UHGV virus genome: UHGV-0101699
Direction: 5' to 3' (one strand)
Length of the DNA stretch: 64,000 bases
Source: a virus
A program made the translations under genes and the position numbers. The notes under the pieces were generated by a model. It made no database searches. It was not told where the DNA came from and worked only from the letters and a program-made list of their open reading frames with translations. Every line of letters starts with the position of its first letter. The first letter of the stretch is position 1. Shown piece by piece: positions 1,802 to 47,300 of the stretch.

Positions 1802-2446
1802 TTAGGGTTCGTCAGAGAGCTTCTGACGCGCATTTGCGATGCTAAAAACTTCTGCTTTTGGCCGAGGGTCGACTAAATCGAGTTCTGCTTCGCTGTGATA
1901 CTCGATATCAAAGTCCCGTTTGATGTGTCTGATGTAAATCGCTGTGAGCAGGCTGTCTTCTTTCAGGAAGTGGCCATAGGATCGGCGGATCACTTCACCT
2001 ACTTTTTCGATCTTCTCTCCGCCCATACAGAGGTGATTGAATCGACTGTGCTTTCTCAGCATTTCATCAACTGGCCCAGAGTAAACCTTATCCACGACAC
2101 CGAATCGAAGGATCTTCGCAGTATCAGCTTCAACCAGGCAGACAATCTTCCCCTCGGTCAATCTGTCACGCCAGGTAACGCCTGAACGCATAGTGTTGAA
2201 GTAGGGGGTATCCAGACCGATGATCGGTTTTCGAAATGCCAGCAGCGGTACGTATCTGGCACAGCTGTTCAGGTGGAAGTTAACGCCGGCGTCACGCAAC
2301 TTGAGTCGGGTCTCGTTGATGTTGCACTTCGAGGCTATGCCACACAGGCTGCAGAGAACCTTCTCGTTGCTCAGTGTGGAGTTTGATTCTATGGTGTAGG
2401 TTCCGTCTTCCAGACGGCGTACCCAACGTGTGCGTTTTAAGTCCAT
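1802..2446 (-). CDS. hypothetical protein
   Basis: 214-aa ORF with no overlap to neighbouring genes. No motif recognised. Confidence 0.5.
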   Translation of the reverse strand: MDLKRTRWVRRLEDGTYTIESNSTLSNEKVLCSLCGIASKCNINETRLKLRDAGVNFHLNSCARYVPLLAFRKPIIGLDTPYFNTMRSGVTWRDRLTEGKIVCLVEADTAKILRFGVVDKVYSGPVDEMLRKHSRFNHLCMGGEKIEKVGEVIRRSYGHFLKEDSLLTAIYIRHIKRDFDIEYHSEAELDLVDPRPKAEVFSIANARQKLSDEP

Positions 2447-2523
2447 GTTCTCGTTTTAGTGATTGTTGACCGGAACCACGATAGCTTACTAGGCACACCT
2501 GTAATCGCAAATGCCTGTTTTAC

Positions 2524-2604
2524 TTATCCACTTATCCACTGGTTAGATCCCAATAATAAGATCCCTATACAGATCCCTATATAGATCCAAAGAGATCCCC
2601 GATC
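2524..2604. promoter_or_regulatory. origin-like region: two tandem DnaA boxes (TTATCCACT x2, 2524..2540) followed by six GATC sites in AGATCCC-type heptamers (2546..2604)
   Basis: Direct reading. Clustered Dam sites plus DnaA boxes immediately upstream of iterons and the rep gene match P1 oriR-type architecture. Confidence 0.65.
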
Positions 2605-2644
2605 GCCGCAGGCCGCGCCACGCCTGGGCTAAGGACTGATCCGT

Positions 2645-2750
2645 GTATGCTGTCAGCGGTAAACGATATGCTGTCAGCGGTACGGTATATGCTGCCAACG
2701 GTTTTGTGTATGCTATCAGCGGTAATTGACGTATGCTGTCAGCGGTTAGA
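2645..2750. repeat. 5 iterons (TATGCTGTCAGCGGT consensus, ~22 bp period) upstream of rep gene (incC-like)
   Basis: Copies at ~2646, 2667, 2687 (variant GCCAACGG), 2709 (variant GCTATCAGC) and 2733. The two-helical-turn spacing is typical of iterons. Confidence 0.8.
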
Positions 2751-2766
2751 ACCAAAAGGTATCCAC

Positions 2767-3864
2767 ATGTCCACAAGAAAGAAAAAAGAGAGCGATATCA
2801 AAGAAATACCTGAAGATAACGAAATTCTTGAGGAAGAAGCTCTCACTTTGTACACAGGTGACTTAGTTCCTAACAGCAACAATACGGTGCAGCCAATCGC
2901 TTTAATGCGTCTTGGCCTCTTTGTGCCGACACTCAAAGGAACGAAAAATAGCTCTCGCAACAAGTCCAACATGATCGACGCATCCAGAGAGCTTGTCCAG
3001 CTGGAAGTCGCGCGGTCAGAGGGTTATTCAAACATTAAAATCACCGGTCCGCGACTGGATATGGATCATGATTTCAAAACCTGGGTTGGTGTTGTTCGCT
3101 CTCTGGCTGAATACGGCGAGCCAACCGGGCGCGTAGAGCTGAGCATAACGAAGTTCGCCAAGTTCTGCGGCTACCCGTCCTCGCAGATCCGCAAAACCCT
3201 GCGAGACCGCCTGACAAACAGCCTGCTCAAGATCATGCGCACGACGCTGTCGTTCCAGCGCACTCATGAAGAGAAGAACGTCGACGACACCAACAAGATA
3301 TCCCTGTTGATGGTTCACCTCATAAACAGCGTTGATTACAACGAGAAGAAAGACTCTATTGTCTTTTATGCTGAACCTAAGCTGTCTGAGCTCTATCGCT
3401 TTGACCACAAAGTTCTGCTGCAGTTAAAGGTCATCAACAAGCTCCCGCGCAAGGAGACGGCCCAGGCGCTGTATACTTTCATCGAAAGTCTTCCTCCTAA
3501 GCCGGCACCGGTATCTCTTGCCCGGCTGCGCGCCAGGCTCAATCTGAGCACGCGCAACGTCAGCTCGCAAAACCAGACTATCAGGAACGGATTGAAGTCA
3601 CTGCAAGAGCTGGGCTATCTCGAATATAGCGAGGTTAAGCGTGGCCGTTCTGTCTACATCCAGATCCACAGTCGTAACCCAAAACTGAAAGTAACATCGA
3701 GCAAACCCGAGAAGCCAGAGGCGCCTAAGCAGGCAGAAGAAGCGAAGGGTGAAATTGATGCGAAACAGAACCTCAAAAACAAAATTTCTGAGCTGTCGCA
3801 GAACCTGACGCCAGAGAATATCAAGCTGATCGAGATACTCACCAATAGCCTCAAGTTGCTTTGA
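2767..3864 (+). CDS. repA: replication initiator protein (RepA-like, iteron-binding)
   Basis: Start moved to the ATG at 2767 (MSTRKKKESD...); the listed ORF from 2647 runs through the iterons. The 365-aa gene is flanked on both sides by iterons. Gene context identifies it rather than a motif. Confidence 0.65.
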   Translation: MSTRKKKESDIKEIPEDNEILEEEALTLYTGDLVPNSNNTVQPIALMRLGLFVPTLKGTKNSSRNKSNMIDASRELVQLEVARSEGYSNIKITGPRLDMDHDFKTWVGVVRSLAEYGEPTGRVELSITKFAKFCGYPSSQIRKTLRDRLTNSLLKIMRTTLSFQRTHEEKNVDDTNKISLLMVHLINSVDYNEKKDSIVFYAEPKLSELYRFDHKVLLQLKVINKLPRKETAQALYTFIESLPPKPAPVSLARLRARLNLSTRNVSSQNQTIRNGLKSLQELGYLEYSEVKRGRSVYIQIHSRNPKLKVTSSKPEKPEAPKQAEEAKGEIDAKQNLKNKISELSQNLTPENIKLIEILTNSLKLL

Positions 3865-4135
3865 TACGCTGTCAGCGGTTCAACATATGCTGTCAGCGGT
3901 TCTTTTGTCTCAATGTATGCTGTCAGCGGTAAAACGTATGCTGTCAGCGGTACATTTCCACTATCTGCGGTCTTTATAAATCGACATGGCTAACGTCTAA
4001 GGGCAACTGCTGCCCTATGAATGTATGCTGTCAGCGGTGAAAGATATGCTGTCAGCGGTAAAACGTATGCTGTGAACGGCACAAGGTATGCTGCCAGCGG
4101 TAATTCACTGTCAACGTATGCTGTGAGCGGTAATA
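3864..4135. repeat. 9 iterons of the same 15-mer downstream of rep gene in two groups (4+5), incA-like copy-control array
   Basis: Copies at ~3864, 3885, 3915, 3936, then 4024, 4045, 4066, 4087, 4116. Variants include TACGCTGTCAGCGGT, TATGCTGTGAACGGC and TATGCTGCCAGCGGT. Confidence 0.8.
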
Positions 4136-4315
4136 CAGCGCTGGATTAGATATCCTGAAAACGGGCGACGCAGTCGTTGCTTTGCGTCAGGCCCGTGTAG
4201 ATAACAATATGGCTTCCCCAGTGGTCACTAACCGGCTAACCCGCATGAATGCTAGGTTAGTGGTTACTAACAAATGTTATTCCATCACGCTTAAAACGCG
4301 CTGCAGAAACATCGG

Positions 4316-6450: not shown

Positions 6451-7281
6451 CTATTTAATAGTAATGAAAGGAGTGTTTGCGCCCTGTGTCATGTATTGAG
6501 GCAACTGACCATTCCACTTATTGATAGCTTCAAGTTCCATGACATTAGGGTTCTGGCGTAGTGCTTCACCGCGTAATTTAATCGCATCAGCTTCTGCTTG
6601 AGCGCGTTTGCGGATAGCATCAGCTTCACCTTCCGCTTGTTCGCGTAGCATGTTTGCTTCAGCTTTACGTTGCTCGACTTCCTGCTGGCGCTGGAGAGTC
6701 TTCTGGTTCGCGGTAACTTTGGCATTGATGGATTCAATGACAGTGTCAGGGTAGTCAGGTTTCCCTACCCACGACAGACTCAAGACTTCTATGCCTACCG
6801 GTGTCATTTCTTTCTGAATATCTTTGAGTGCATTATCGAGTAGTGCAGCTTTTCCACCGTCAATGAAAGCATCCGTGGTCATGCGGCTAGCAAGTCTGTT
6901 TAAAGAGTCGGCAATCTTCTGGCGAAGATCAGTGTCGGTAATATCATCAACACCTTTCCGATAAGTTTGGAAAACCGTGGTTACCTTGTCGCGATTGACC
7001 AGGTACGCAACACCGATTTTGTGGCCAATTGCAGTACCGTCACTCATTTGAAAAGTGAAAGGTTCATCGTATGTTTTCATCTGCTTAAATGTGGGGAATA
7101 CGTAGAGTTCGGTATTGATGCCCGTCCACTGACGGCCCACGCCAACAACCTCCCCAATTCCCTTGTCTTCGCCTAGTTTGTTGACCTTAATGCCAACGTA
7201 ACCTGGCTCTACACGATCACAACCACTAAGGCCCATCGTACAAATCGCAGCCAGTACTATCGCCAATATACCTTTCTTCAT
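6451..7281 (-). CDS. SPFH/band-7 (HflC/HflK/prohibitin-like) lipoprotein
   Basis: Lipobox LSGC after a signal peptide. The SPFH core is followed by a charged coiled-coil (EQRKAEANMLREQAEGEADAIRKRAQAEADAIKLR), typical of the family. Confidence 0.7.
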   Translation of the reverse strand: MKKGILAIVLAAICTMGLSGCDRVEPGYVGIKVNKLGEDKGIGEVVGVGRQWTGINTELYVFPTFKQMKTYDEPFTFQMSDGTAIGHKIGVAYLVNRDKVTTVFQTYRKGVDDITDTDLRQKIADSLNRLASRMTTDAFIDGGKAALLDNALKDIQKEMTPVGIEVLSLSWVGKPDYPDTVIESINAKVTANQKTLQRQQEVEQRKAEANMLREQAEGEADAIRKRAQAEADAIKLRGEALRQNPNVMELEAINKWNGQLPQYMTQGANTPFITIK

Positions 7282-7484
7282 TACTTATTCTCCTGAGATT
7301 TTTTGAGTGAGTTGATATACCGGCGTCCTGCGATGAGACCTACAACTGGGAACCCAAAAGCCATAAAAAGGCCGATTAACAGAGCCACATCGCTTTTAGC
7401 CGAAACAAGCGAAGGGACCAGCAATCCGTAAACAAAAGCGACTGATAACACAGTCAAAACCGCCATCAGATAACCTTTAATCAT
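7282..7484 (-). CDS. small 2-TM membrane protein, probable NfeD-like partner of the SPFH protein
   Basis: 67 aa with two hydrophobic helices. Its stop abuts the SPFH gene start. SPFH genes are usually paired with an NfeD-type membrane protein. Confidence 0.5.
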
Positions 7485-7514
7485 GTGTGTCCTTACGTTG
7501 TTTTGTTTTCAAAT

Positions 7515-7533
7515 GATAAGTAAGTACTTATAT
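7515..7533 (-). promoter_or_regulatory. copy of dispersed box (GATAAGTAAGTACTTATAT)
   Basis: About 30 bp upstream of the 7484 start, just after the recA terminator. Confidence 0.5.
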
Positions 7534-7551
7534 ATTTTCAAGTATCAAAAT

Positions 7552-7570
7552 AGGCGTCCAATGGACGCCT
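7552..7570 (-). terminator. terminator hairpin AGGCGTCC-aat-GGACGCCT downstream of recA
   Basis: Same stem sequence as the 6416 hairpin. Followed by TATTTTGAT on the minus strand. Confidence 0.7.
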
Positions 7571-7575
7571 TTACG

Positions 7576-9921
7576 TTACTCGATGGTTTCTGTAGTGCCA
7601 GAAGACAGGTCTTTAGCTCGACGTTCGTCGATGGCCTGTAGCGCCGCAATGATCTCAGGAAGGGGCTTATCACGATACATGTCGACTATCTGCGATTTGG
7701 TGTACTTCTTGTCGCCAATCTCTACGCGGCCGCTGGCATTCTTTGGCAGGTATCCTTCTTCGAGCATGTGCTCAACCAGTGACTCGATAACGTCCAGACC
7801 GCGGGTCGGGTCGAAGTAGAATTTCCATGAGCATTTGCCGAATGGCGGTGCCACTTTGTTTTTGATGCACTCGGCGCCAACGTCCTGACCGATCTTATCT
7901 TTGCCATCCTTCATGACAGAAGCGCCAAGACGAATACGTACTGAGGCGTAGAACTTCGGAGAATCACCACCAGGGGAGGTGGTCGGATCGCCAAACATCA
8001 CGCCGATTTTTGTACGAACCTGGTTAAGGAAAATAATGCAGGCATTGTACTTGCGCGCCCATAGCGCCAGCGTTGGAAAGTTGGCGCTCGTGGCGCGAGC
8101 CAGGGCCGTATTATCGTTCATGTTTAGCTGATCTTTATCCTTCGCTGTACCTTCCGCCATTTTGTCGAACTTCTCGGCTTTGGAGTTTGGCACCATTGAC
8201 GCAAGGGAGTCGGCTACGATGCAAATAGGGGCGTCTGCGGGGATCAGCTCTTCGTCTCGCACCAGTTTCAGGATGGTGCCGATCAGCTCAACCGATTCTT
8301 CGAATGTGTCCGGCTGCTTATAGACCCACTGGCCGTCATCCTCATCCGCATTCAGCCCGTTTGCCACCGCCAGACCAACGTCAAAGCTGTTTTCGTGGTC
8401 GAGGAATACAGCCAGACCCTCCTGTTTCTGAGCGGAGACCATGGCGGCCGTCGCCAGGAATGTGTTGTGGCTGATAATCCCGTTAGACCAGAAAGAGTGT
8501 GTTTCCGGCATCGCTACGTCGAACGTTGGTGCTTCACCTTCCTCAATAGCCACGACTTCGTCGTAGAACAAGTTAGAGTCAATTACCGCTGCCAGTTGTG
8601 CAAACAGATGCTCGTTAAAACGATTCTTTCTGCCAATGAAGGAGACATAGATTTCTCGCAGTTTGTCTATTCCGACACGATCGCCGCGGCCAATAACGTG
8701 ATCTACCAGAACGTAGTCTTTACGAGAGGTCTTGGTGAGTGACTCGTAGAGTGATTTCACTAAGCCGCTGATGTGCGGAACGTAGCCTAAATAAGTGCGG
8801 TCAAAACTAATGTCCCGTTTGGTTGCCACTGCTAAACGAGCCGGAGACTCGAACCCAATCGTTGACAGGAAAAGGTCGTAGTTAGAGCCACTGAATGACA
8901 GCCGGTAATATATGTTTTTATAACCTGCGACGTGTTTTTCAGAGATAGTTGACGTAATCCCCAGATTCAGGAGCATGAGGCGAATTTGCTGTAGCAGCAG
9001 CCCACTCGCGCTCACAACCTCAATGCAGCGACCATCATTGACGTGGCATTCCAGCTCAAAGTAGCCGCGAAGGAATGCAATTTGAGCCTCGCTATTGGCG
9101 CGACGCACACTCAACGGAACCTGCTTGCCAGCAGCTTTCTCATACTCCAGACCATATTCTTTAAAAAGCAGCGAACGCACCTCTTTGCTAAACAGCACAT
9201 GGTCTTCCGAGCCGTTATGTTTTCTCGTAACTGGCATCTTGTCTGATACCAGCGAAATGAGGCGGTAGTACTCATCCTTGATGAATGGATCTGTGTTAGA
9301 AAAATGCACAGAATTTTCAGAGGCCACGTATCCGTCAGCAATTAAATAGCCCATCAGTTTTGCGATATTGGCATCCAAGTGCTGATCGCCGAATTGATGT
9401 GTGCCAACCATTGAAGGAATCGTGTCGCCTACACTGATTTTTTCAGCATACCGCCAGACGATATTGCCTAAGTCGTCAACCACACGAATTGGGTGACGGA
9501 ACGTAGCCTCGATGTAACCCCCTGATGCCAGCTTAATGCGCTTGAATTTGCGACGGTTGTTCCATGTCAGGTGTGAGGTCTTCTCTATCACGCCATTTTC
9601 ATTGATGAGTCCAACGTTATGCTCTACATCGCGAGTAGTGCATGTTGCTTTGTGCCCCTCAATCTCAAACAGTTCTTTCACTGTTACCATTCCACGCTCC
9701 GTCAGCAGCATGGTGTCTGCGGTAACACATTTCCCCGCACTTGGCGGCCCAAAGATCTCAACGATACGTCCGCTTGGGAAACCGCCGTCATAGCGCCCGG
9801 AGATGGCTTTATTCAGCGGAGGGAAGCCGGAATCAATCCAGTGTGAAACCTTTTGGATCTCGTCATTGCTGCCGATTTTCTTTTTTAATGCCATTGCCAG
9901 TGCTGATTTTCCTTTTGCCAT
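7576..9921 (-). CDS. recA: RecA-family recombinase interrupted by a 422-aa intein at the P-loop
   Basis: Exteins align along their full length with E. coli RecA (GRIVEIFGPPSAGK|TFLA; IFLNQVRTKIGVMFGDPTTSPGGDSPKFYASVRIRLG; KNKVAPPF). The intein lies between GK and T. Confidence 0.85.
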   Translation of the reverse strand: MAKGKSALAMALKKKIGSNDEIQKVSHWIDSGFPPLNKAISGRYDGGFPSGRIVEIFGPPSAGKCVTADTMLLTERGMVTVKELFEIEGHKATCTTRDVEHNVGLINENGVIEKTSHLTWNNRRKFKRIKLASGGYIEATFRHPIRVVDDLGNIVWRYAEKISVGDTIPSMVGTHQFGDQHLDANIAKLMGYLIADGYVASENSVHFSNTDPFIKDEYYRLISLVSDKMPVTRKHNGSEDHVLFSKEVRSLLFKEYGLEYEKAAGKQVPLSVRRANSEAQIAFLRGYFELECHVNDGRCIEVVSASGLLLQQIRLMLLNLGITSTISEKHVAGYKNIYYRLSFSGSNYDLFLSTIGFESPARLAVATKRDISFDRTYLGYVPHISGLVKSLYESLTKTSRKDYVLVDHVIGRGDRVGIDKLREIYVSFIGRKNRFNEHLFAQLAAVIDSNLFYDEVVAIEEGEAPTFDVAMPETHSFWSNGIISHNTFLATAAMVSAQKQEGLAVFLDHENSFDVGLAVANGLNADEDDGQWVYKQPDTFEESVELIGTILKLVRDEELIPADAPICIVADSLASMVPNSKAEKFDKMAEGTAKDKDQLNMNDNTALARATSANFPTLALWARKYNACIIFLNQVRTKIGVMFGDPTTSPGGDSPKFYASVRIRLGASVMKDGKDKIGQDVGAECIKNKVAPPFGKCSWKFYFDPTRGLDVIESLVEHMLEEGYLPKNASGRVEIGDKKYTKSQIVDMYRDKPLPEIIAALQAIDERRAKDLSSGTTETIE
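8464..9729 (-). mobile_element. LAGLIDADG-type intein (homing endonuclease domain) inserted in recA Walker A
   Basis: It begins with Cys (GK|CVTADTML) and ends with ...IISHN|T. Two LAGLIDADG motifs are present (KLMGYLIADGYV, IAFLRGYFELECHV). The codon boundaries were checked against the nucleotide sequence. Confidence 0.8.
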
Positions 9922-9923
9922 TC

Positions 9924-10190
9924 TTAGGCTCCTTTTGTCTCGTTGATGCGTTTGGAAGCGGCGGCTTCATCAAACTTTATTGCGTCGTGGTTGAGGTGTT
10001 TGGCCATGCGGGAGAGGATCTTGACGACCTGTTCGCTAATCAGCCCGTACTCTCGTTCTGTCACGCTCATGCCGGCCGCGCCGAGAATGCGCGGTAGTGC
10101 AACAACGGCATGTTCTCCATGGAAGAAGACAATCTCCTTAGCCAGCATCGTAGGCGTGGTCGTATTGCCGTTGATGAGTGATTTCAACAT
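9924..10190 (-). CDS. hypothetical protein (88 aa)
   Basis: Packed between recA and the exonuclease gene. Confidence 0.45.
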   Translation of the reverse strand: MLKSLINGNTTTPTMLAKEIVFFHGEHAVVALPRILGAAGMSVTEREYGLISEQVVKILSRMAKHLNHDAIKFDEAAASKRINETKGA

Positions 10191-11134
10191 CAGCAGTACC
10201 TCTCAAAAGGCAAAACGAACACATCCAGATCTTCCAGGAATGACCGGAAGTTCAGCTCATGGCAGAGCAGTTCGAAGGCTTTCAAATCACGTGCGCCTTT
10301 TATCTTTTCAATTTCGCTGGGTGGGAACTTGGTATCGATGAGGTTCATCAGCGTCATGTTGCGTTTGAAGGCTTCCAGCATCCGGCAGCCGGTCTTCTCG
10401 TTGAAGGCATTTTTGGCCAGTTTGTTGAATGCCGTTTTGTATCGGCCTTTATTGATGACGATCGAGCCGTCGTTAATGCCGCGCACCATAGCGGCGACGC
10501 TTCCCCATTCGTGCAGCAGCTCCTTGGCGCCACCGTCACCAATCCCGCCTACACCTTTGATGTTGTCGGAGGTATCCCCCTGCAGAGCTTTGGCTTCGAG
10601 GAAAGCACGAGGAGTAGGCAGACCGATCAGCTCTGGGAACTGCTCAAAGTTCACCTGCTTGTGTTTGGCGTCTTCACGAAGGCTCACCCAGCTGACTTTT
10701 TCTCGAACCAGCTGCAGCCAGTCGCCGTCGCCGGTGAGCAGGTAGATATGATCGACCGTTGGTTGTGGCGCAAGACGACCAACCAGCATCCCCGCCAGGT
10801 CATCGGCCTCGGCGTCTTTGGCGATCAGCTGGTTGACGCCAAGGGCGGCCATCATTTTCAGGATATAAGGCTTCTGGACTGCAAAGCCTTCTTTCATCTT
10901 CTTCATTTCCGGATCTTCATCGCGATTTGCTTTGTATTCCGGGTAATAGTCGCGACGCTTGTCGCTAAAGCCGTCCCACAGGATCATGGGGCGAGCGTGA
11001 AGAATGGACGCATAGCGACGAACGTTTTTGACGAAGCCAAACACCGCCTGAACTTCCATTTCGCCGTTATGTAATTTGTCAGATTGCTGGTGGTAATAGC
11101 CCAGGCTGTTACCGTCCACAAAGAGATAATTCAC
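10190..11134 (-). CDS. 5'-3' exonuclease / flap endonuclease (FEN, PolI 5' nuclease family)
   Basis: Start reassigned to the GTG at 11134, preceded by GGAAGGAG. The N-terminus MNYLFVDGNSLGYYHQ and the H3TH motif IKGVGGIGDGGAKELL are typical. The track start at 11185 would place the terminator hairpin inside the coding sequence. Confidence 0.85.
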   Translation of the reverse strand: MNYLFVDGNSLGYYHQQSDKLHNGEMEVQAVFGFVKNVRRYASILHARPMILWDGFSDKRRDYYPEYKANRDEDPEMKKMKEGFAVQKPYILKMMAALGVNQLIAKDAEADDLAGMLVGRLAPQPTVDHIYLLTGDGDWLQLVREKVSWVSLREDAKHKQVNFEQFPELIGLPTPRAFLEAKALQGDTSDNIKGVGGIGDGGAKELLHEWGSVAAMVRGINDGSIVINKGRYKTAFNKLAKNAFNEKTGCRMLEAFKRNMTLMNLIDTKFPPSEIEKIKGARDLKAFELLCHELNFRSFLEDLDVFVLPFERYC

Positions 11135-11157
11135 CGGAAAACTCCTTCCAAAAAGTA

Positions 11158-11175
11158 AGGCGTCCGTAGACGCCT
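11158..11175 (-). terminator. terminator hairpin AGGCGTC-cgta-GACGCCT
   Basis: Variant of the same stem family. Followed by TTACTTTTTGG on the minus strand. Lies downstream of the SSB gene. Confidence 0.65.
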
Positions 11176-11194
11176 TAACAGTCATGGCCTGTGA

Positions 11195-12253
11195 TTAAAG
11201 CGATTCTAATTCCGCCAGCAGATCGTCAAGACCCTCATCGTCATTAGAAGTGCTGGTCGCGGCTGCAGTGGTAGTGGCGGCAGCAGCTGATGCTTTAACT
11301 TCTTCCGGCTCTGGTACGAACTCAGCTTCTGCGGCACGTAAGATCTCTTCGTCTACCAGAGATGTTTTTGCTGGTTCCGGGGTAGAGGTCGTGGCTACAG
11401 CGGCTGCACCTTCCGTATGGCCAGTGATGGTGCCAAAACCAGGCAGAGTAGCTGCGCTGGCAGCAGCTGGTGAGGAAATAGCAGCGGTGGCGGCGGCAGG
11501 TGCAGCAATACCAATGAGACGCCCCATGGTGCGAACGGTGGACAGCAGACGAGTTTCATCAGCCTGATTGGCGTAAGCGATCAGGTCATGCTGGGTCGAC
11601 CACAGTTTTTCAGGGATATCGCCCTTGTAGACTTTACGTTTTGGGGATACGTCGTACTTGGTATCGCGACCGGAGCCGGTGCGTTTGATCAGGAACGCAT
11701 AGCCTTCTTCTTTGCTTAACGGGTTGCCGATATCATCTGCGATATCCTCAGACATCACTTTGCAGATATCGTCGAACACAGTGGACGGGAGCTCAATCAG
11801 CTGACATTTTTCTGCGTCGCCAAAGTCTTCACGAGCTGAAAGTACGCCATTGACCAGGTAGCGTGGAGTAGCGCGCATTTGACCGATACGCTCTTCCATT
11901 GCCTTGTTGCCTTTGTAGCGAGCGCGACCTTCCATCACCATCTCACACAGCTGGCACGCACGATTGTGGGTGTGCTGTTCGCAGATATAGGCAGTGGTAA
12001 CTTCTTTGCCCTCCTCATTCTGATGCTTAACGTAGTGCATACCGAAAGTCTGGAAGAACACACCGTTCTGATCCTCCTTGTTGGGGAAGATGCGCAGATA
12101 GTTATTACCGTCTTTCAGACGGGTTAGGTCGACGTTGTTGCCTCGTTTGGAAGCAATATCGCCGCGGGTCTTGTTAAGCAGATCAAGTAATGACTTAGAC
12201 ATGTATTTCTCCTTGTTGTGATTATGGCCATGGGCGCTTTTCGCTTGGGGCAT
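11195..12253 (-). CDS. ssDNA-binding protein, T4 gp32-like
   Basis: LRIFPNKEDQNGVFF matches T4 gp32 IRFLPSKNDEQAPFA. A His/Cys cluster (CEQHTH...CQLC) matches the gp32 zinc site. There is an Ala/Thr-rich linker and an acidic C-tail DDEGLDDLLAELESL. Confidence 0.65.
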   Translation of the reverse strand: MPQAKSAHGHNHNKEKYMSKSLLDLLNKTRGDIASKRGNNVDLTRLKDGNNYLRIFPNKEDQNGVFFQTFGMHYVKHQNEEGKEVTTAYICEQHTHNRACQLCEMVMEGRARYKGNKAMEERIGQMRATPRYLVNGVLSAREDFGDAEKCQLIELPSTVFDDICKVMSEDIADDIGNPLSKEEGYAFLIKRTGSGRDTKYDVSPKRKVYKGDIPEKLWSTQHDLIAYANQADETRLLSTVRTMGRLIGIAAPAAATAAISSPAAASAATLPGFGTITGHTEGAAAVATTSTPEPAKTSLVDEEILRAAEAEFVPEPEEVKASAAAATTTAAATSTSNDDEGLDDLLAELESL

Positions 12254-12290
12254 TCGCTTGTTCGTGGCTCTTAAAAGCGTACATAATAAT

Positions 12291-12314
12291 AGATCAGTAC
12301 TTACTTACTATCTA
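12291..12314 (-). promoter_or_regulatory. copy of dispersed box (AGATCAGTACTTACTTACTATCTA) upstream of SSB gene
   Basis: On the coding strand the box is followed directly by TATTAT. Confidence 0.5.
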
Positions 12315-12321
12315 TCAAAAA

Positions 12322-12753
12322 TTATCGGGTGGGTGTGAAGCGTTCGGCACCCAGTCGTTCAATCTCTACGATGGCCATTTTCGAGGCCTGCACGATCATG
12401 TCTCTACGGTGAGAGAAGGCGGTGACAGCGTGCTTATAGATGTCAGCGATCAGACGTGCGTCATCCAGTTTTTGGCGCTTCGCAAGGTATTGTGGGCTTG
12501 TGCGAACCTTAGCTTCCAGTACTGATTCATTGAACTTTATTCCGTTCATACTCAAGTTCTTACGTTCAATGTCGTAAATTTTTGCCTCTATGGCATCGAG
12601 GGATAGTTTAGCATCTGCAACCTCTCGTTCCGCGCGCGCTAGTCTTGCGCCGTACTCCATCAACAGCCTCGGTTGCTGCCGCCAAACCTCTTCCAGATTG
12701 TCGCGATCGAACTCCAGATCGGTCATGATTTTTTCGTAAATTTCGGTGCTCAT
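12322..12753 (-). CDS. hypothetical protein (143 aa)
   Basis: ORF adjacent to the SSB gene. No motif recognised. Confidence 0.5.
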   Translation of the reverse strand: MSTEIYEKIMTDLEFDRDNLEEVWRQQPRLLMEYGARLARAEREVADAKLSLDAIEAKIYDIERKNLSMNGIKFNESVLEAKVRTSPQYLAKRQKLDDARLIADIYKHAVTAFSHRRDMIVQASKMAIVEIERLGAERFTPTR

Positions 12754-13910: not shown

Positions 13911-15080
13911 TCATTTGTTAATAGTCTCCGCAACCTCTGCCAGAATGGCTTCCAGCTTTTCTCCTTCCTCTGGACGGAAGTACAAAATATTCGGGTTAAA
14001 TCCATAGAACACGGTCACGTCCAGGTCTGGCAGATATTCTTTGCGCCCAACAAGATCGGATGGCTTGCTCTTGTTATTAAACAGCGATGTCGCCCGGCTG
14101 CCGCACGTCAGCACGTAAGTTGGACGAACCAGATTTATCTCTTCCCGCATAAAGTCGATAAACTGGCCGATCTCATCTTTGGTGTAGTCTTTTTCCTTAT
14201 CCTTTACCTTTTTACACACGCCTGTGACATACAAATCACCCATACGCAGGTCACCAGAAACCAGCAACTTGGCTTTGAAGTCATCGTAGCCGTTCTCCAT
14301 GAAGTAGCCGGTACGTGCATCATTGCCATTGGCGTTGTCGAGTATGACCATAATTTTTGGCTTAATGCCGATGCTTGGTCGTATCAACTCATCGCCCAGA
14401 CCCATTTCTGCGGCCATGCGAGTCATCAGCACATTGACCTCTGCAGAGCGTTTTGGGTTCATTTCAAATGGGCGTGAAGCTTTCACCGCATCGATCACCA
14501 GATTGCCCATCAGCTCTGCCTGATCGCGCAGACGTTCCGGATCGGTCGCCGGCATACTGCCAGGTTCAATAGAGGCGAATGCACCAACCTTTTGTAGAGA
14601 CTCACGTACTCGGCTGTTACAGGCTCGCTTCTCGACCGCTTCCTCAAATTGCTCAAGTGACTCGAATTTGCCGCCAACTTTCTCACGCGCTCTCATGATG
14701 GCCTGGCAACCATTCTCAGAGCAGCCTTTCACAGCAGAGAATGGCGCATACAGAACCTGGCTGCCGTCTTCCAGCGTGCGGATCTCAATTCGGTTAGATG
14801 ACACGTTAACGTCTGGTGGCAATACGCGAATGCCATAGGTCAGCGCATCCTTAACCAGCCCCTGGTGCTTATCCTCGCCCAGAATGGTGAGAGCAGCAGC
14901 GAAGAACTCAGCAGGGTAATGTGTCTTTAACCACATAGACTGATAGCTGATCAGCGAGTAGGCAACGGAGTGTGATTTGTTGAAGGCATATCCACCGAAC
15001 TTCTCAAAGGCGTCCCATACTTCTTGGGCTTTCTCAGGGCTAAGACCTTCCTGCTCGGAAATAACTTTGGCAATTTTCAT
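13911..15080 (-). CDS. dnaE: DNA polymerase III alpha (DnaE-type), C-terminal part (fingers tip, beta-binding, OB, C-terminus)
   Basis: GYAFNKSHSVAYSLISYQSMWLKTHYPAEFFAA is the hallmark DnaE segment. Alignment with E. coli DnaE places the split between KNG and INAE. Confidence 0.8.
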   Translation of the reverse strand: MKIAKVISEQEGLSPEKAQEVWDAFEKFGGYAFNKSHSVAYSLISYQSMWLKTHYPAEFFAAALTILGEDKHQGLVKDALTYGIRVLPPDVNVSSNRIEIRTLEDGSQVLYAPFSAVKGCSENGCQAIMRAREKVGGKFESLEQFEEAVEKRACNSRVRESLQKVGAFASIEPGSMPATDPERLRDQAELMGNLVIDAVKASRPFEMNPKRSAEVNVLMTRMAAEMGLGDELIRPSIGIKPKIMVILDNANGNDARTGYFMENGYDDFKAKLLVSGDLRMGDLYVTGVCKKVKDKEKDYTKDEIGQFIDFMREEINLVRPTYVLTCGSRATSLFNNKSKPSDLVGRKEYLPDLDVTVFYGFNPNILYFRPEEGEKLEAILAEVAETINK

Positions 15081-15796
15081 GTGTTTTTCCCGTCATTAGC
15101 TTCAAACGCTAGCTTTTTTAAGATATTTGCGATTTGAGTGTTAGAGATGCCGAATTTTTCTCGCAACTTTTCATAGGTTGCGCCAGCCTTGCGCAAGGCG
15201 ACCACCTCAGCTCTTGCTTCAGCATCCAGTTTTTTGGATGCTCTTGAGACAACGATCGGCCCACCAACTCGTGCCCATTTCTTCCCGGTGACGATATGGT
15301 GAATGTAAAGCTCAGTTAAACCATATTCGGCCGCGAGGTCTTTGTTCAGAGCGCCTTCTGACTTTTTAATGCGAATAGCAATGACGACTTCGTTGGTTAG
15401 CTTGGCGTTGTAGCGCCTCTCACCAAACTCAACGGTATCGTGTGCAATGGCGTCAGCCATGTTGTCGACTTGAGTGCCATACGCGAGATTGGAGGGCGCA
15501 TTGTTTGATGGTCTTCCGTCAAGATGACGAATAAGTAAGCCTTCTGGTCGTTCTCCGTGGAATGCAGTTGCTACCAGATAATGGACTGTGCGGTCGCATT
15601 TGACGCCGTTGACGCTTAGTTTCACGCCCAGATGTCCAAAATCATTGATTACGCGAGGTTTGAGGATTTGCCCCTTCTTCACCCATTCGCCCCCATTGGG
15701 GGCTGTTCGTATAACATCTAAAGAGCGAATGCGACCTAAACTGGATGCTTCGTAATAACCTTCAAACTCAGGAATGGATTTCCAAATTTCTTCCAC
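15077..15796 (-). mobile_element. free-standing HNH homing endonuclease gene inserted within dnaE (NUMOD4 + HNH_3 type)
   Basis: EEIWKSIPEFEGYYEASSLGRIRS (NUMOD4-like) and HYLVATAFHGERPEGLLIRHLDGRPSNN (HNH). It sits exactly between the two dnaE parts with ATGA/TGA overlaps. The probable start is a GTG with a GGAG SD. Confidence 0.8.
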
Positions 15797-15798
15797 CG

Positions 15799-18162
15799 TC
15801 AAACTCCAAAATCAACAATATCAGCGTTATCACCAATCGCTTCGTCATAGGTTCTGCGTTTGCCGTCAGAGCACATCAGCTTGGCCTTTTTGTGGACTTC
15901 TACTGTGCTTCCGTTTTCAAGTGACAGTGTCACCCAACCTGCTTGCGCTCGTTCTACAAAATCGCTGCCGATCGCTTTCATCTTATCCATGTTCTTTTTA
16001 CCGATAGCGGAACGCAGAGCGTCAGCCTCAGCCATAGAGAATCCAGCGAGTACGCGAGAGCTTTTCATGATCTGCTCTTGATAGAGTAAAACGCCGTTGG
16101 TTTCTTTAGTTGCTTCCTCAAGACGCGGATGAATTGAATGTGGAGCCATAAAACCTTTTGCCACGGAGACATAGTCGTCCAACATGCCTGACTGAATTGG
16201 ACCTGGTCTGAAAAGCGCAGTTGTGGCCACAATGGTTTTGAAGCTCATTGGCTCGATACCACCACCCAGATCTTTGAGTAGCTTCCTCATGGGGCCGGAC
16301 TCAAGCTGGAACACACCTTGCGTATACCCCGCGGCGAATCCATCAAGTACTTTGCGATCATCCAGTGGGATGGCATCGAGGTTGACGTCCTTACCGGTGC
16401 TCTCTTTGATGTAACGTTTTGCGCTATCCAGCAGATCGAGAGTGGCCAGGCCCAGAACGTCCAGTTTGATCAGCCCCATGGCCTCGCAGTATCGTTTATC
16501 GAATGCGATGCAACGCGCGTCTCCACGTCGCTCTACAGGGGTACGTTCCGTCAGAGGTACGCCAGCAACAATCATCCCTGCAGCATGGCGGCCGAAGCCA
16601 CGCATCAGGTTTTGCAACTTGCTCGCCGCCTTAAATGCGTCCGGATGTTTGGTGGCGTACTTGTCCAGGCTGGCCAGCTGCTCGCGCAGCTCCGACAGAG
16701 ATAAACTGTCATCCTCCAGGGTCTTTAGCTCCTTGGAAACAGCCATATCCGCCGCATCAACTCCATAAATACGCGCTGTGTCGCGCAGTGCGGAAGCGGC
16801 GCCCAGATAAGTGAAGTTCGGAATGCCTGCAACATACTCTTCGCCATATCGGGCATTCAGATACTCGATCACCTCATGGCGCCGCGCCTGGCTAAAGTCC
16901 AAATCCGCATCCGGCAAGTCGAGACGTTCAGGGTTAATGAAACGTTCGAACAGAAGACCATGACGGATTGGGTCAACGTTAGTAATGCCGATGCACCATG
17001 CCACCAGAGAGCCGGCGGATGAACCACGACCTGGCCCGACAGGAATACCAGTCTCGCGACTATGATTCATCAGATCGCGAACCATCAGGAAATAACCGCA
17101 GAATCCCAGGCGAGTGAGCGTTTCCATTTCATACTTGAGGCGATCGACGTAAATGCGGTGCTCGGAAGCTGGTGGCGTGTAGCCAAATTCTTTGTTGCTG
17201 AGACGTTTTCGAAGCCCTGCGACAGCCAGTTTCATCAACGTTGCAGGCTCATCGTCTGCCATTTTTGGCAGCGCCGGCGCCATCTCGTGCCAGCGCCATT
17301 CGCACGCCTTAACAATGGAGTCCTGCGTTGTAGAAGCCATGGCGGCAGACACAGATACGCCCATCCGGACAGAAAACTCTTTCAGAGCCTGCAGCAGATG
17401 ACGGCGACCATTTATTGCATTGTCGCGCTGGTGGGGGATACGCAGCCGGTGTGGCTGATCGACTTTGATATTGTTCATCACCATGTGGGCGATGTCTTTG
17501 ATGTCAGCGTCATCAACCCCTTCGTAATAAGCTGGGTAAAACGCAACGGGCTCGATTTTCAGTGCGCTTGCCACTTTCATGGCTCGCACGTTGATCTGGT
17601 CATAGAATGGCGTAGGGTGTGGATATACGACGCTGTAGAAATTATCGCGTCCACCGGCAGTAATCAGCGCACTAATAATTTTAGCGAAGTCCGGGCGCTG
17701 GAATACGCTGCCGATATCCGAAGTCAGTAACAGTATATTGCCTTTAGCGTATGTAGCCGCCAACTGGTCGAGCGCCAGGCGTGGCACGAAGTAAAACTGC
17801 TCGCGGGTATTGGCTAAAGTCATTAGTTCGCAAATGTCGCGATAACCTTGCTCGTTTTTAATCAGTGCGGTGAAGCAGTAGTTACGTCCACGCTCCAATG
17901 ATTCCATACATCCATTAGACTCTTTAGCCAGTTTAGCCCGGTACTCGTATGTTGGATCGTCGACAACATTCAGCTTAACACCACAGATCACCGCCATCTC
18001 ATCGCCAGCTGCTCGTTGCAGGGGGATAACGCTGGCGATATTCATCGTGTCAGCAGAGATAACCGCGGTATAGCCAGCCTCCTTTGCCACCTTTACTGCG
18101 TGCTCTGCTTTCAGTGCTGATTCTCCCAGGGAAAAATCAGTCCTGACCATCAGTGCTTTCAT
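15799..18162 (-). CDS. dnaE: DNA polymerase III alpha (DnaE-type), N-terminal part (PHP, palm, thumb, fingers)
   Basis: PHP-domain N-terminus. The last ~45 aa (WVTLSLENG...DFGV) have no DnaE counterpart, so they are read-through after the split point. Confidence 0.8.
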   Translation of the reverse strand: MKALMVRTDFSLGESALKAEHAVKVAKEAGYTAVISADTMNIASVIPLQRAAGDEMAVICGVKLNVVDDPTYEYRAKLAKESNGCMESLERGRNYCFTALIKNEQGYRDICELMTLANTREQFYFVPRLALDQLAATYAKGNILLLTSDIGSVFQRPDFAKIISALITAGGRDNFYSVVYPHPTPFYDQINVRAMKVASALKIEPVAFYPAYYEGVDDADIKDIAHMVMNNIKVDQPHRLRIPHQRDNAINGRRHLLQALKEFSVRMGVSVSAAMASTTQDSIVKACEWRWHEMAPALPKMADDEPATLMKLAVAGLRKRLSNKEFGYTPPASEHRIYVDRLKYEMETLTRLGFCGYFLMVRDLMNHSRETGIPVGPGRGSSAGSLVAWCIGITNVDPIRHGLLFERFINPERLDLPDADLDFSQARRHEVIEYLNARYGEEYVAGIPNFTYLGAASALRDTARIYGVDAADMAVSKELKTLEDDSLSLSELREQLASLDKYATKHPDAFKAASKLQNLMRGFGRHAAGMIVAGVPLTERTPVERRGDARCIAFDKRYCEAMGLIKLDVLGLATLDLLDSAKRYIKESTGKDVNLDAIPLDDRKVLDGFAAGYTQGVFQLESGPMRKLLKDLGGGIEPMSFKTIVATTALFRPGPIQSGMLDDYVSVAKGFMAPHSIHPRLEEATKETNGVLLYQEQIMKSSRVLAGFSMAEADALRSAIGKKNMDKMKAIGSDFVERAQAGWVTLSLENGSTVEVHKKAKLMCSDGKRRTYDEAIGDNADIVDFGV

Positions 18163-42832: not shown

Positions 42833-44278
42833 TTAATTTAATTGCTCACTACTCATGGCCACGCCTGTATCGAAGGTATTCTGGTTTGTATTTATGGCGT
42901 CGCCCCCTTCTGATGAGTTAATTTTATTCTCCAGCGCTTCAACTCGTTTAATCAGGACCTTCACCGCCGCCAGCGTGTCCATCATTATCACGTTGTTGTC
43001 GAGCTGAAGGCGTTCACTGTTAACCTGCTTATTACCATCCAGGTACGAAATATTAACGTGTTTCACGTATTGCTCGTCTACTTCCTCGGCCTGCTGCGCG
43101 ATGATCCCCCGGCGGACGCGGTTCTGTTCGTCGTCGTTATAGACGAACGTCACCAGCTCCAGCGCCTTTATGCGGTCTACTGACTGCTGCCCATCAGTAG
43201 GCGTGATATCGTGCTTCAGGCGAGCGTCAGACGTCCCCAGAAACTGCACGCTACCGCGCTGGCTTCCGTAGATATTGCCGTCGGCCAGGAATTGCCAATA
43301 CTGTATTGGTTGCGAAAATCCACCAACAGAAAGAATTAGTCGGTGGTTTGTCCCTACCTGCTCTTCGAACCACATAGCCGCCTGTCCACCATCAACGTTG
43401 CCATCACTACCGCGCGTACTAAATCTTGACGTAAAACGTGGCGCTTGTAACACGGTGCCATTTGCTATGTTTCCAGGGTCAGTGTTTAATCTGGCAATGA
43501 AGGCTTGCCCGTACAGATCGCCGTACTGCGTAGCAATGCCATAAACCCCGAGACCGCCACGGACTCGCAGCCCCGGATAAACCGCTAAAGCCCCGTCTTC
43601 GGTGATAATTCGATGCGTATAATCTGCAGAGCTACCTTTGTGGTGAAAATCAATGTACGGCGTTGTGTCGCTGCTGATTTCCAGGTTTCCGGCGTCGATG
43701 GCAGTGAACTGTGTATTGCTATTCTTCCTGAGAATTTGCCCTGCAGCCGTTATAGTGGCACTGAAAGTAACCCCCTTACTGAATATCTGCGTCTGTGTGA
43801 ACGTGTTTGCTGCGCTCGTCTTCGCTGAATCTTTCAGTGAGTTCCTGAGTTCCGCGAGGTCAGATGCTTTCGCCATCCCAGATACAGCAGGAACAGTCAC
43901 AGACGTACCTGTTATAGGGTCTGTCATCGTAATGTCGCCGCTTCCGGTCAGGGCTGTAGACCATCCTTGGACAACGTTACGCCAAAGAGTAAATGCACTG
44001 GCTAGTTGGTTCGCAAAAGACGATGTGCTGGCAGTTTCTGACGTGATAATTCCATATTTCGCACCAGAAAAAGCAGTTGTTATGTTTCTCGTCAGGGTCA
44101 GTTGAGTGTCATTATTTACTGATTTGATGGCATACAGATCAGCACTTCCATTGCGATAAATGACTAAAATTGAACCCTCTTGAATACCAAGTGCGGGCTC
44201 CGACCACTTTGTTGAAATACCAGTAACCTTTGCCTGGTTTGCTGCACCCGTTACGGTGCCAACTTCATACATTGCCAT
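42833..44278 (-). CDS. side tail fiber protein with C-terminal intramolecular chaperone (peptidase S74) domain
   Basis: SDARLKHDITPTDGQQSVDRIKALELVTFVYNDDEQNRVRRGIIAQQAEEV is the autoproteolytic chaperone signature found in T5 pb1 and K1F endosialidase tails. Confidence 0.7.
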   Translation of the reverse strand: MAMYEVGTVTGAANQAKVTGISTKWSEPALGIQEGSILVIYRNGSADLYAIKSVNNDTQLTLTRNITTAFSGAKYGIITSETASTSSFANQLASAFTLWRNVVQGWSTALTGSGDITMTDPITGTSVTVPAVSGMAKASDLAELRNSLKDSAKTSAANTFTQTQIFSKGVTFSATITAAGQILRKNSNTQFTAIDAGNLEISSDTTPYIDFHHKGSSADYTHRIITEDGALAVYPGLRVRGGLGVYGIATQYGDLYGQAFIARLNTDPGNIANGTVLQAPRFTSRFSTRGSDGNVDGGQAAMWFEEQVGTNHRLILSVGGFSQPIQYWQFLADGNIYGSQRGSVQFLGTSDARLKHDITPTDGQQSVDRIKALELVTFVYNDDEQNRVRRGIIAQQAEEVDEQYVKHVNISYLDGNKQVNSERLQLDNNVIMMDTLAAVKVLIKRVEALENKINSSEGGDAINTNQNTFDTGVAMSSEQLN

Positions 44279-44330: not shown

Positions 44331-47300
44331 TTAAGCCAGAGAGATGGAGCCAGTAGTTCTGTACATCGAGACAACCCCTGTAAACCGGAACTGACCGCTA
44401 TCGCCACGATTCGGCCACTGAATGGTAATCTGGTGACGTTGACCGAAGTTTGACGCCGGGATACGGATTGAGAAGATTGATGTTTCAAAGTCCTTGCCAT
44501 CGTTTCCAGAGTCAAAAGTCCAAACGGTCGTTTCATCAACGCGAATTGTTACGTTCTGACGCCATACCTGAACAATCGCAACGGAACCATTGAACACCAT
44601 ACGCCGTTCAAAGGGCATACCGTCAATCGTTGCAATCAGGTAGCGCGTGCCGGATGAGGTATTCCCGGAAGCTGGCCAGTTTTTAACAACACGGTCGGTC
44701 ATTGTCACAACGTCACCAACAATTTTATTGGCCTGAACAGTGCCAAGCACAGTGCAGTTCTCGTTAATAGTCACGTTATTAAGCACACCAGTATTTGCGT
44801 GAACTTCACCACGAATAACTACGTTGTTGAACTGTGAACTACCGTCTTTTCCAATTCTCCAGCCACTTGAACCGTTAACGAAATTGTCAGATCGGATTTC
44901 ACCGCCAATTTTTGCATTGGTGATGGAGCCATCCTTAATCACAGCGGCATTCATGTAGGCAACGCCATTTTCCACAACAAATGGTGTGGTCGTGTTTCCG
45001 TTAGAGGTATTGATTAAGCCGAAGCGATCAGCCTGAACCAGAAACTGGCTCTGCAAATTTTTGCCATCGATACCTAAAGCGATACCAGCAGCATACTTTT
45101 TACCGTTGCTGTTGGTTTCCATTTTGACCATCCAGGTACTGTTAACGTTGCCGTTTTCGACAACCGTTTTCTTCAGCTCCTGCAGCTCGGCTGACTGGCC
45201 TCCTACCTGAGCTGTCAAATTCGTCTGCTGCTGAGACAGTGCGCTTATCGTTGTGGCCTGGGTCTGCTGAGTTGACTTAATTGCCGCCAGAGAGGTGGTG
45301 GCGTTATTCAACTCCGTCTGGTTTTTGATGTTTGCCGATGCCTGCGCGTCAATTTGCGACTGCAAGCTGGTATTCAGCGACGACTGCGTTTTCTCGTTGT
45401 TGGTGATGGTCTGCGCCATCTGATCAACCTTCGAAGACGCATCATTCACCTGGGACGTCAAAGAGGACAGCTGAGACGCCTGGGATGTCACCTGCCCTTC
45501 TACATAGGTAACACGTGAGGTAAGGCTGGTGAGCGCGGATGCGTTCGCATTAGCCGAATCCTGTGCCTCTTTTGCGTCCGTGATATCGGTGACAACAACG
45601 TCATCGATATATAGATCATACCCCGGTGTACCAGTGCCAGTTGTGCCGCGGGTAGATACCCAAAATGCGCCGCGAGTGTGGCCAGCGGCTACACGGAGCG
45701 TACCGGTGAATTTCTTCCATGCGCCTCTTGCACCCAATGCGGCTTCATTGATAGTGATTGCCGTCGGCCAGTTATTGTTGTTGGCAGCGTTTTGGGTCTG
45801 CAAACCAACGAGCGTTGACCACCCAGAGGATGGCGACTGATCTGCCGGCATCATCGCCCAGAGTTCAATGCGGAATACCGCATTTTCACGCAGAGCAATC
45901 CACTTACCGATGGTTTTATCGCTGTTTCCGCCCTCACCGGCGCTGCGGGAAACACGCAACGACTTCGTTCCGCTTCGTTTCTGAGAGCTGACGACGACCG
46001 CACGCGAGCCGCTGATCTGCTGGTTTTCGGAGTACGTCTCCAGAGAACCATCAAACCACGGGTTGCTCCCCATCGCCTGAACAGTGCTCAAAGAGTTTTT
46101 GAGCGAAGTTGTCTGGCTGCTCTGGGTTTCAATTTCTTTCTCGTTCTGCGTGACGCGGTTCGTTAATGCCGTTAACGCAGCTGCATCCGCTTTCTTCGAA
46201 ACATTTGTGTTTGTGGTCGCAAGGTCATTCTTAAGTTGCGTAACCTGGCTGCCCTGGCTGGTGATGTCATTCTCTGTCTTGGTCACACGACTATCGAGTT
46301 TAGTGATCGCGCTCGAGTTCGCCTGAGTTTCAACAGAGTCGGTCACATCGACGACATAAAAATCATCAAAGTACATCGCGCCTGCGGACAAGAAAGCAGT
46401 GAACTGAACGTCAGCAACGACATCCTTTGTCGCCTTCCAGGTCCAGGACACTTCCTGCCAGTTCGAAGTGAACGGGCCATAAGCCTTACTTGCGATTAGA
46501 CCGTTACCTTCTGCCACACGGAATTTTGTGTTGTCAGTCGACTGAATGGTGGTATTAGGGTCCTGCTTTGCCCAGATGCCAATTTTGTACGACCGATCCT
46601 TTTTGAAGGAGATCTTCTGGCCCACGCCTGCAGAACCACCCGCCGCCAGTTTGGCGGCTTTGGTGCCAAGATGTGGAACCTGCAGCGTTACCACCGTGGC
46701 AATCCCGCTCCAGCCTGTATAGCCCTCCGTACCACGCTCAAAAGACGGGTTTACGATCAGGTTCCCGGGGATCTGGCTTGCTGCATCCACGCTGGCGTTA
46801 CTGGACGCAAGGCTGTTTTCCAGTGCCGTTGTCGAGGAGCTCAGGGAGTCAATATTATCCCCCTGGGTCTTCACTGTGTTCTGGAGCGTGGTAATTGCCG
46901 ACGCGTTCGCATCAGCCTTCATCATCACACCGCCGGCGGCGCCCAGTCCCATCATTACCCCGTTCACAAACTCGACTGAGGTCGAGATGTGGGCGGTGCC
47001 GTCGCCACCGGTTGGCGCACGCAGTTCCAGACCATCGCCAGGCTTCATGCCTTTGCGGCCAAGGAGAATGTAGGCACCACGATACGGTAGAGAGTTGACG
47101 ACTTCGGATGTGCCACCAAGAGATTCCAGGGCAGACAATACTTTACCTCGGTTGCCAGTTGGCTCATCGAATGTCAGGACACAAACGTAAGTCCCACTGG
47201 CCAGTGCCTCGATATCAGCCGACATCGTGGCACCATTATTCGCGCTGCCAAAGACATCGTATGTTTTGGATGTCGCAATCACCGTTGATCCGTCGCTGTG

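Follow-up and report, generated by a model that had tools for sequence, protein, structure and literature searches.

A putative homing intein in the ATP-binding loop of a Klebsiella phage-plasmid recombinase is the published RecA c2 intein

Inteins interrupt RadA/RecA recombinases at five insertion points, designated a to e by Topilina et al. (2015; Nucleic Acids Res 43:6631, PMC4513877). At point c, archaeal RadA carries inteins of type c1, that of P. horikoshii RadA among them, and bacterial RecA carries those of type c2; the c1 and c2 inteins were judged to be unrelated and independently acquired (PMC4513877). Table 1 of that work lists c2 inteins covering residues 65-486 in eight Escherichia coli strains, two Enterobacter and one Salmonella, and residues 96-517 in T. 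fusca, the Thermobifida intein being of 422 amino acids (aa); its text nowhere mentions a phage or a plasmid. Novikova et al. (2016) count 56 bacterial RecA inteins, Proteobacteria included. Here we describe a 422-aa insertion in the ATP-binding loop (P-loop, Walker A) of a recombinase encoded by UHGV virus genome UHGV-0101699, of which a stretch of 64,000 nucleotides (nt) was analysed (the window). The window is an SSU5/pHCM2-family phage-plasmid of Klebsiella. We consider it highly probable, from sequence and from a structural model, that the insertion is a class-1 intein with two LAGLIDADG motifs, predicted to splice and to home, and that it corresponds to the published c2 intein.

With the published RecA c2 intein the window intein shares the insertion point between Lys and Thr of the P-loop, the residues covered (65-486), the length of 422 aa and the host genera; it differs in that the window copy resides in a Klebsiella phage-plasmid and in that its extein is a phage RecA/UvsX-like paralogue. 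In the complete genome of E. coli MS 145-7, a strain of Table 1 in PMC4513877, the intein is located on a 198-kb plasmid and shows 97.0% DNA identity. The window intein is the same element as the published c2 intein, already known and widespread. There is no novelty in it: a paper of 2015 (PMC4513877) already gives the intein, the site of insertion and the residues that it spans; a preceding sequence-only reading of this DNA had implied that the P-loop site was new, which is contradicted by its entry as c2 (65-486). The same reading had rightly set the site apart from those of the mycobacterial RecA inteins. These too are inteins in a RecA-family ATPase, but they occupy site a (M. tuberculosis, 252-691) and site b (M. 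leprae, 206-570), lie in the monomer-monomer interface region rather than in the P-loop, which is point c, and interrupt chromosomal recA. The P. horikoshii RadA intein (c1) sits where the P-loop of its RecA-superfamily recombinase ends and is followed by Thr+1, as in the window, but it is a 172-aa mini-intein without endonuclease, archaeal and hyperthermophilic. Its splicing is controlled by the exteins (PMC4513877) and, according to PMC5238726, stimulated by single-stranded DNA (ssDNA); conditional splicing is a demonstrated feature of that intein. Our search of the literature on the RecA intein and on SSU5-type phage-plasmids found no paper linking the two, and the phage-plasmid context of the published c2 intein is a modest addition.

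The open reading frame (ORF) of the precursor occupies 7576..9921 (minus strand, as for all features of the window given below) and encodes 781 aa plus stop. It comprises an N-extein (9730..9921; aa 1-64), the C-terminal end of which is the Walker A sequence GPPSAGK starting at aa 58, the intein (8464..9729), and a C-extein (7579..8463; aa 487-781) with the remaining RecA ATPase core and the C-terminal domain. The insert extends from Cys65 to Asn486 of the precursor and is followed by Thr487; its 1266 nt (3 x 422) are in frame and hold no stop. The sequence-only reading had placed the intein at 8464..9729 within this ORF, with the splice junctions GPPSAGK/C...HN/TFLA (slashes mark junctions or insertion points throughout), and this was exact to the base, Cys65, His-Asn486 and Thr487 being found in the precursor. 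Pfam, NCBIfam, AlphaFold2, Foldseek and the empty alleles all support an intein (Cys1-Asn422) made of a Hint splicing domain with a nested LAGLIDADG homing endonuclease. The Cys1 codon (9727..9729) provides the nucleophile of block A, CVTADTMLL, within the match to TIGR01445 intein_Nterm (protein 65-147; 34.4 bits, above the 24.5 cut-off). The TxxH motif of block B, T76-F-R-H79 (9493..9504), is a conserved column among relatives. Blocks F and G (8464..8526), TFDVAMPETHSFWSNGIISHN, have His-Asn as their last residues, and the end of the insert together with Thr+1 reads ...THSFWSNGIISHN/T, PF14890 scoring 44.6 bits against a cut-off of 35.8. The Thr+1 codon, ACA (8461..8463), specifies the C-extein nucleophile, which is the Walker A Thr. 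With the whole precursor as query, Pfam returned RecA as two separate stretches (3.8e-37), LAGLIDADG_3 (4.5e-18) and Intein_splicing (1.7e-11); several NCBIfam equivalogs for intein-containing proteins also matched in part, NF007072 'intein-containing recombinase RecA' among them. An in-frame insertion absent from orthologous alleles, Cys1, TxxH, HN and Thr+1 are the marks of class-1 inteins, and as far as can be judged from its sequence the insert is a bona fide class-1 intein of textbook anatomy.

The AlphaFold2 model of the intein (pLDDT 85.1, pTM 0.87) shows the Hint fold. Foldseek comparison of the model with the PDB gave endonuclease-containing inteins as top matches, several solved inteins with a probability of 1.00: TliVMA (7qss; E 5.6e-25, TM 0.74) was followed by PI-PfuI (1dq3), PI-PkoII (2cw7) and PI-SceI (1vde). 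These solved inteins (E 5.6e-25 to 5e-11) have the same architecture of Hint with nested LAGLIDADG domain, and sequence similarity is detectable in the endonuclease domain; they differ in showing only 10-22% sequence identity, in their host proteins and in their target sites. The endonuclease part of the model also matches I-DmoI. The two LAGLIDADG motifs reported by the sequence-only reading are present, LMGYLIADGY at intein positions 125-134 (9328..9357) and FLRGYFELECH at 219-229 (9043..9075). It had asked for an acidic residue in both LAGLIDADG helices, and the modelled helices 120-132 and 213-227 terminate at Asp132 and Glu227, respectively, as in monomeric two-motif LAGLIDADG homing endonucleases, in which each helix ends in Asp or Glu. 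Glu227 is aligned to the catalytic Asp of the 'GDG' of PI-PkoII. The endonuclease thus looks intact in sequence and model.

Excision of the intein leaves a spliced product of 359 aa, which aligns without a break to E. coli RecA across the junction, GRIVEIFGPPSAGKTFLATAAMVSAQ, the junction itself falling at GRIVEIFGPPSAGK-TFLATAAMVSAQ of that alignment. Because this alignment is uninterrupted, the insertion can be placed between the Walker A Lys and Thr; the position, GxxxxGK/T with residues 65-486 inserted, is that of RadA/RecA insertion point c (c2 allele). Naturally empty alleles show the same. We read seven of them, those of SSU5, S. Typhi pHCM2, a Y. pestis pMT1-type plasmid, two E. coli plasmids, one Enterobacter plasmid and a Klebsiella phage; the sequence-only reading had proposed that intein-less alleles be sought in related phage-plasmids. 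The empty site reads GGGCCGCCAAGTGCTGGTAAA/ACCTTCCTGGCGACGGCC, with the variant GCCGGTAAA/ACCTTTTTG in pHCM2 and pMT1, and the spliced-junction variant of the site is GCGGGGAAA/ACATTCCTG. Direct comparison after excision of 8464..9729 showed that the window gene runs colinear with its uninterrupted counterpart in Klebsiella phage ST13-OXA48phi12.3, with 33 mismatches in 1077 nt: three are silent and lie at most 7 nt from the junction, and the others are scattered or fall in the variable C-terminal tail. The expectation that removal of the insert would restore a contiguous RecA was thereby borne out against both E. coli RecA and a natural empty allele.

The same observations bear on whether the insert is an intein at all. 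In RefSeq the protein as a whole often bears no other name than 'LAGLIDADG family homing endonuclease', as might suit an intron at the RNA level that encodes a homing endonuclease, or an insertion of the Hint/BIL (bacterial intein-like) type that does not splice and inactivates the gene. We regard the chance of either as negligible: the insert is in frame and without stop, it has Cys1, TxxH, HN and Thr+1, the intein splicing profiles match, and the extein is under strong purifying selection, with a ratio of non-synonymous to synonymous substitution rates (dN/dS) of 0.01-0.04 among intein-bearing alleles. The low ratio is consistent with a recombinase that is still functional, which requires splicing. 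Rfam gave no family at E <= 0.1 in 7300..10300, therefore an RNA intron is unsupported and was rejected.

The sequence-only reading described the extein as a full-length RecA closely matching that of E. coli. It does belong to the RecA family and carries the conserved motifs (Pfam RecA, 128.6 against a cut-off of 27), but the match is not close: identity to the E. coli RecA core is 37%, and the score for TIGR02012, the bacterial RecA equivalog, is 134.7 bits versus a cut-off of 325.3. The best named PHROG of the extein is PHROG 97, 'UvsX-like recombinase'. By these comparisons the host protein is a RecA-family phage recombinase and not an orthologue of cellular RecA. A decayed allele was seen in E. 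albertii p3RM15115 (CP043243.1, about 2306..4150), in which the 1266-nt intein frame is intact (92% identity) but the ORF ends in the C-extein, at codon 614, and the record annotates no coding sequence; the recombinase there is probably a pseudogene in which the intein persists.

The intein appears to be mobile. Its DNA is identical at 1266 of 1266 positions to the intein of E. coli plasmid pNT1F34-108k, against a synonymous divergence (dS) of 1.26 in the extein, and at 1265 of 1266 positions to that of a C. freundii plasmid, with an extein dS of 0.56. At 100-nt resolution the identity profile climbs from about 80-88% to 100% on entering the intein and falls back on leaving it, and the junction sequences place the switch point within about 10 nt of each junction. 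A silent flank, GCGGGGAAA/intein/ACATTCCT, is common to all six intein-bearing alleles compared; the Thr codon ACA occurs in each of these six and in none of the seven empty alleles, and GCGGGGAAA in one of the seven. In the Klebsiella lineage the donor-type bases reach at most 9 nt upstream and at most 8 nt downstream, and beyond them the sequence is the local Klebsiella one. Donor-type flanks of this length would be expected if a double-strand break at the homing site had been repaired with a short co-conversion tract. In older variants of the intein (97% and 92% DNA identity) the endonuclease region has a dN/dS of 0.13-0.18, so that the endonuclease domain is under purifying selection. These comparisons suggest a recent transfer of the intein between diverged phage-plasmids of different genera.

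The distribution of the intein is broad. In PLSDB it is found in 248 plasmid records, and the uninterrupted junction in 544; copies of at least 99% identity are present in 162 plasmids from Escherichia, Klebsiella, Enterobacter, Citrobacter and Cronobacter. By genus the intein was counted in Escherichia (123), Klebsiella (71), Enterobacter (41), Citrobacter (6) and Salmonella (1); no Yersinia is among the intein matches, though 63 Yersinia plasmids match the surrounding region. Three of ten related phage records carry it (vB_KpnS_p4727, Cyrano and PhiR41_1). Among 5,426 complete E. coli genomes 120 contain the intein, and all 121 places are on plasmids, none being chromosomal.

We propose, from the pattern of sequence divergence, that the element is probably an active homing intein. 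Some points weigh against this. The second catalytic acid is a Glu in an atypical 'FELEC' motif, where the canonical form is GDG; the flank signature is based on 13 hand-picked alleles; identical intein DNA within diverged flanks could in principle come from ordinary homologous recombination; and Topilina et al. only modelled the E. coli precursor and mention, as 'data not shown', that the RadA-like orientation gave steric clashes (PMC4513877). An intein that splices with a dead endonuclease, persisting by vertical descent and occasional ordinary recombination without homing, would fit the non-canonical second motif and also the decay of distant relatives, two of which (P0011 and P0015) are without the first motif and two (P0017 and P0018) near-mini. 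We nevertheless hold it to be very unlikely, as it sits badly with the absence of any difference in 1266 nt at an extein dS of 1.26, the identity step at both junctions, the short silent signature linked to the intein, the selection on the endonuclease, the acidic residues at both helix ends and the near-identity across 162 plasmids of five genera.

More distant relatives of the intein, at 28-45% identity, are all found in RecA-family proteins at the site GK/C...HN/T. Four of them lose the endonuclease step by step, P0011 and P0015 having the first LAGLIDADG motif deleted and P0017 and P0018 being near-mini inteins; such endonuclease loss represents the usual stages of intein decay. A scan of a genome collection with the single intein protein found only two loci. 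In the Anaerolineae metagenome-assembled genome DAOTTO010000406.1 (1222..4209) a 995-aa RecA of chromosomal type (GPESSGK...) has two inteins, one of 45% identity in the P-loop and a second, a mini-intein, after KIGVMFG and before SPETTSGG.

In the mechanism that we propose, the 781-aa precursor would be translated with its ATP-binding loop split by the intein, and for this reason it could not be an active ATPase. Cys1 would undergo an N-S acyl shift, attack by Thr+1 would give a branched intermediate, Asn422 would cyclise with the help of the penultimate His, and an O-N shift would restore GPPSAGK-TFLA, yielding the 359-aa recombinase and the free intein. When two related elements meet in one cell, the free intein or the precursor would cut the P-loop coding sequence of the intein-less allele, and repair off the intein-bearing allele would carry over the intein and no more than about 9 nt of the sequence beside it. 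Splicing and cleavage activity are the parts of this scheme that we infer.

An inactive precursor also invites the idea that the intein is kept as a conditional-splicing switch that gates the recombinase (by ssDNA, redox or temperature, for example), in parallel to the P. horikoshii RadA intein. The two share their insertion point, the archaeal one being extein-controlled and, according to PMC5238726, stimulated by ssDNA, and about 30% of the plasmids of the family retain the intein. We find a switch distinctly unlikely, for close relatives do without the intein, as in the Klebsiella alleles that are empty at 98.5% flank identity, the transfer signature fits a selfish element, and the published comparison holds c1 and c2 inteins to be unrelated (PMC4513877). 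The broader proposal, likewise by analogy, that the intein is now sweeping through SSU5/pHCM2-family phage-plasmids across enterobacterial genera and also splices conditionally, in response to ssDNA or stress, appears unlikely to us; regulation by conditional splicing is not favoured by the many closely related intein-less elements. Should conditional splicing be true, the activity of a phage-plasmid recombinase would be gated after translation, and E. coli would offer a natural, genetically tractable system for both intein homing and conditional splicing.

As a discovery the intein carries little weight, having been in print since 2015 and being carried by hundreds of plasmids already sequenced. 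Its meaning lies elsewhere: the published 'E. coli RecA intein' belongs to a recombinase of SSU5-family phage-plasmids and not to chromosomal recA, which reframes any biological role, and the suggested recent transfer across genera would provide a natural homing system that is convenient to use in a model host. The exact precursor protein is already public (NCBI and UniRef) under the name 'LAGLIDADG family homing endonuclease (plasmid) [Klebsiella pneumoniae]', and by exact look-up its 90%-identity cluster has 1,496 members. PHROG 9666 (779 positions, 'unknown function') is the RecA intein precursor. In RefSeq/PGAP, precursors of 779-781 aa are mostly named 'LAGLIDADG family homing endonuclease' and sometimes 'intein-containing recombinase RecA'; the former label hides the recombinase from surveys of phage-plasmid gene content.

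The region is 99.7% identical to Klebsiella phage vB_KpnS_p4727 and matches 691 plasmid records from Klebsiella, Escherichia, Enterobacter, Yersinia, Salmonella and Citrobacter. The recombinase gene stands in a recombination and replication module in which every gene is on the minus strand, downstream of genes for a gp32-like ssDNA-binding protein (11195..12253) and a 5'-3' exonuclease (10190..11185) and of a small ORF between exonuclease and recombinase (9924..10190). The stop codon of this upstream gene (9924..9926) lies 2 nt ahead of the recombinase ATG, and an AAGGAG sequence (9929..9934), read directly from the DNA 7 nt 5' of the ATG, is a putative ribosome-binding site. Directly 3' of the recombinase stop is a terminator-like hairpin of 8 pairs, 6 of them G-C, followed by ATTTTGAT (7552..7570). 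As the counts of promoter- and terminator-like sites in 7200..12600 were not above those of shuffled sequences, only this hairpin is reported, as a consensus match.

A second homing-endonuclease gene was observed in the window. At 13911..18162 dnaE, for DNA polymerase III alpha, is divided between two ORFs, 15799..18162 with the PHP, polymerase and finger domains and 13911..15080 with HHH_6, and between the halves lies a gene for a 241-aa homing endonuclease with NUMOD4 and HNH_3 domains (15077..15802), which overlaps each of them by 4 nt. At least 80% of the dnaE region is matched in one place by 294 of the 783 related plasmid records; many of the others have a match that is shorter by about 733 nt, with only one dnaE annotated beneath it. 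Elsewhere in the window, an ORF of 4,058 aa with a TTG start (44331..56507) is followed by one of 481 aa (42833..44278) with a Peptidase_S74 chaperone-of-endosialidase domain, both presumably tail or tail-fibre genes.

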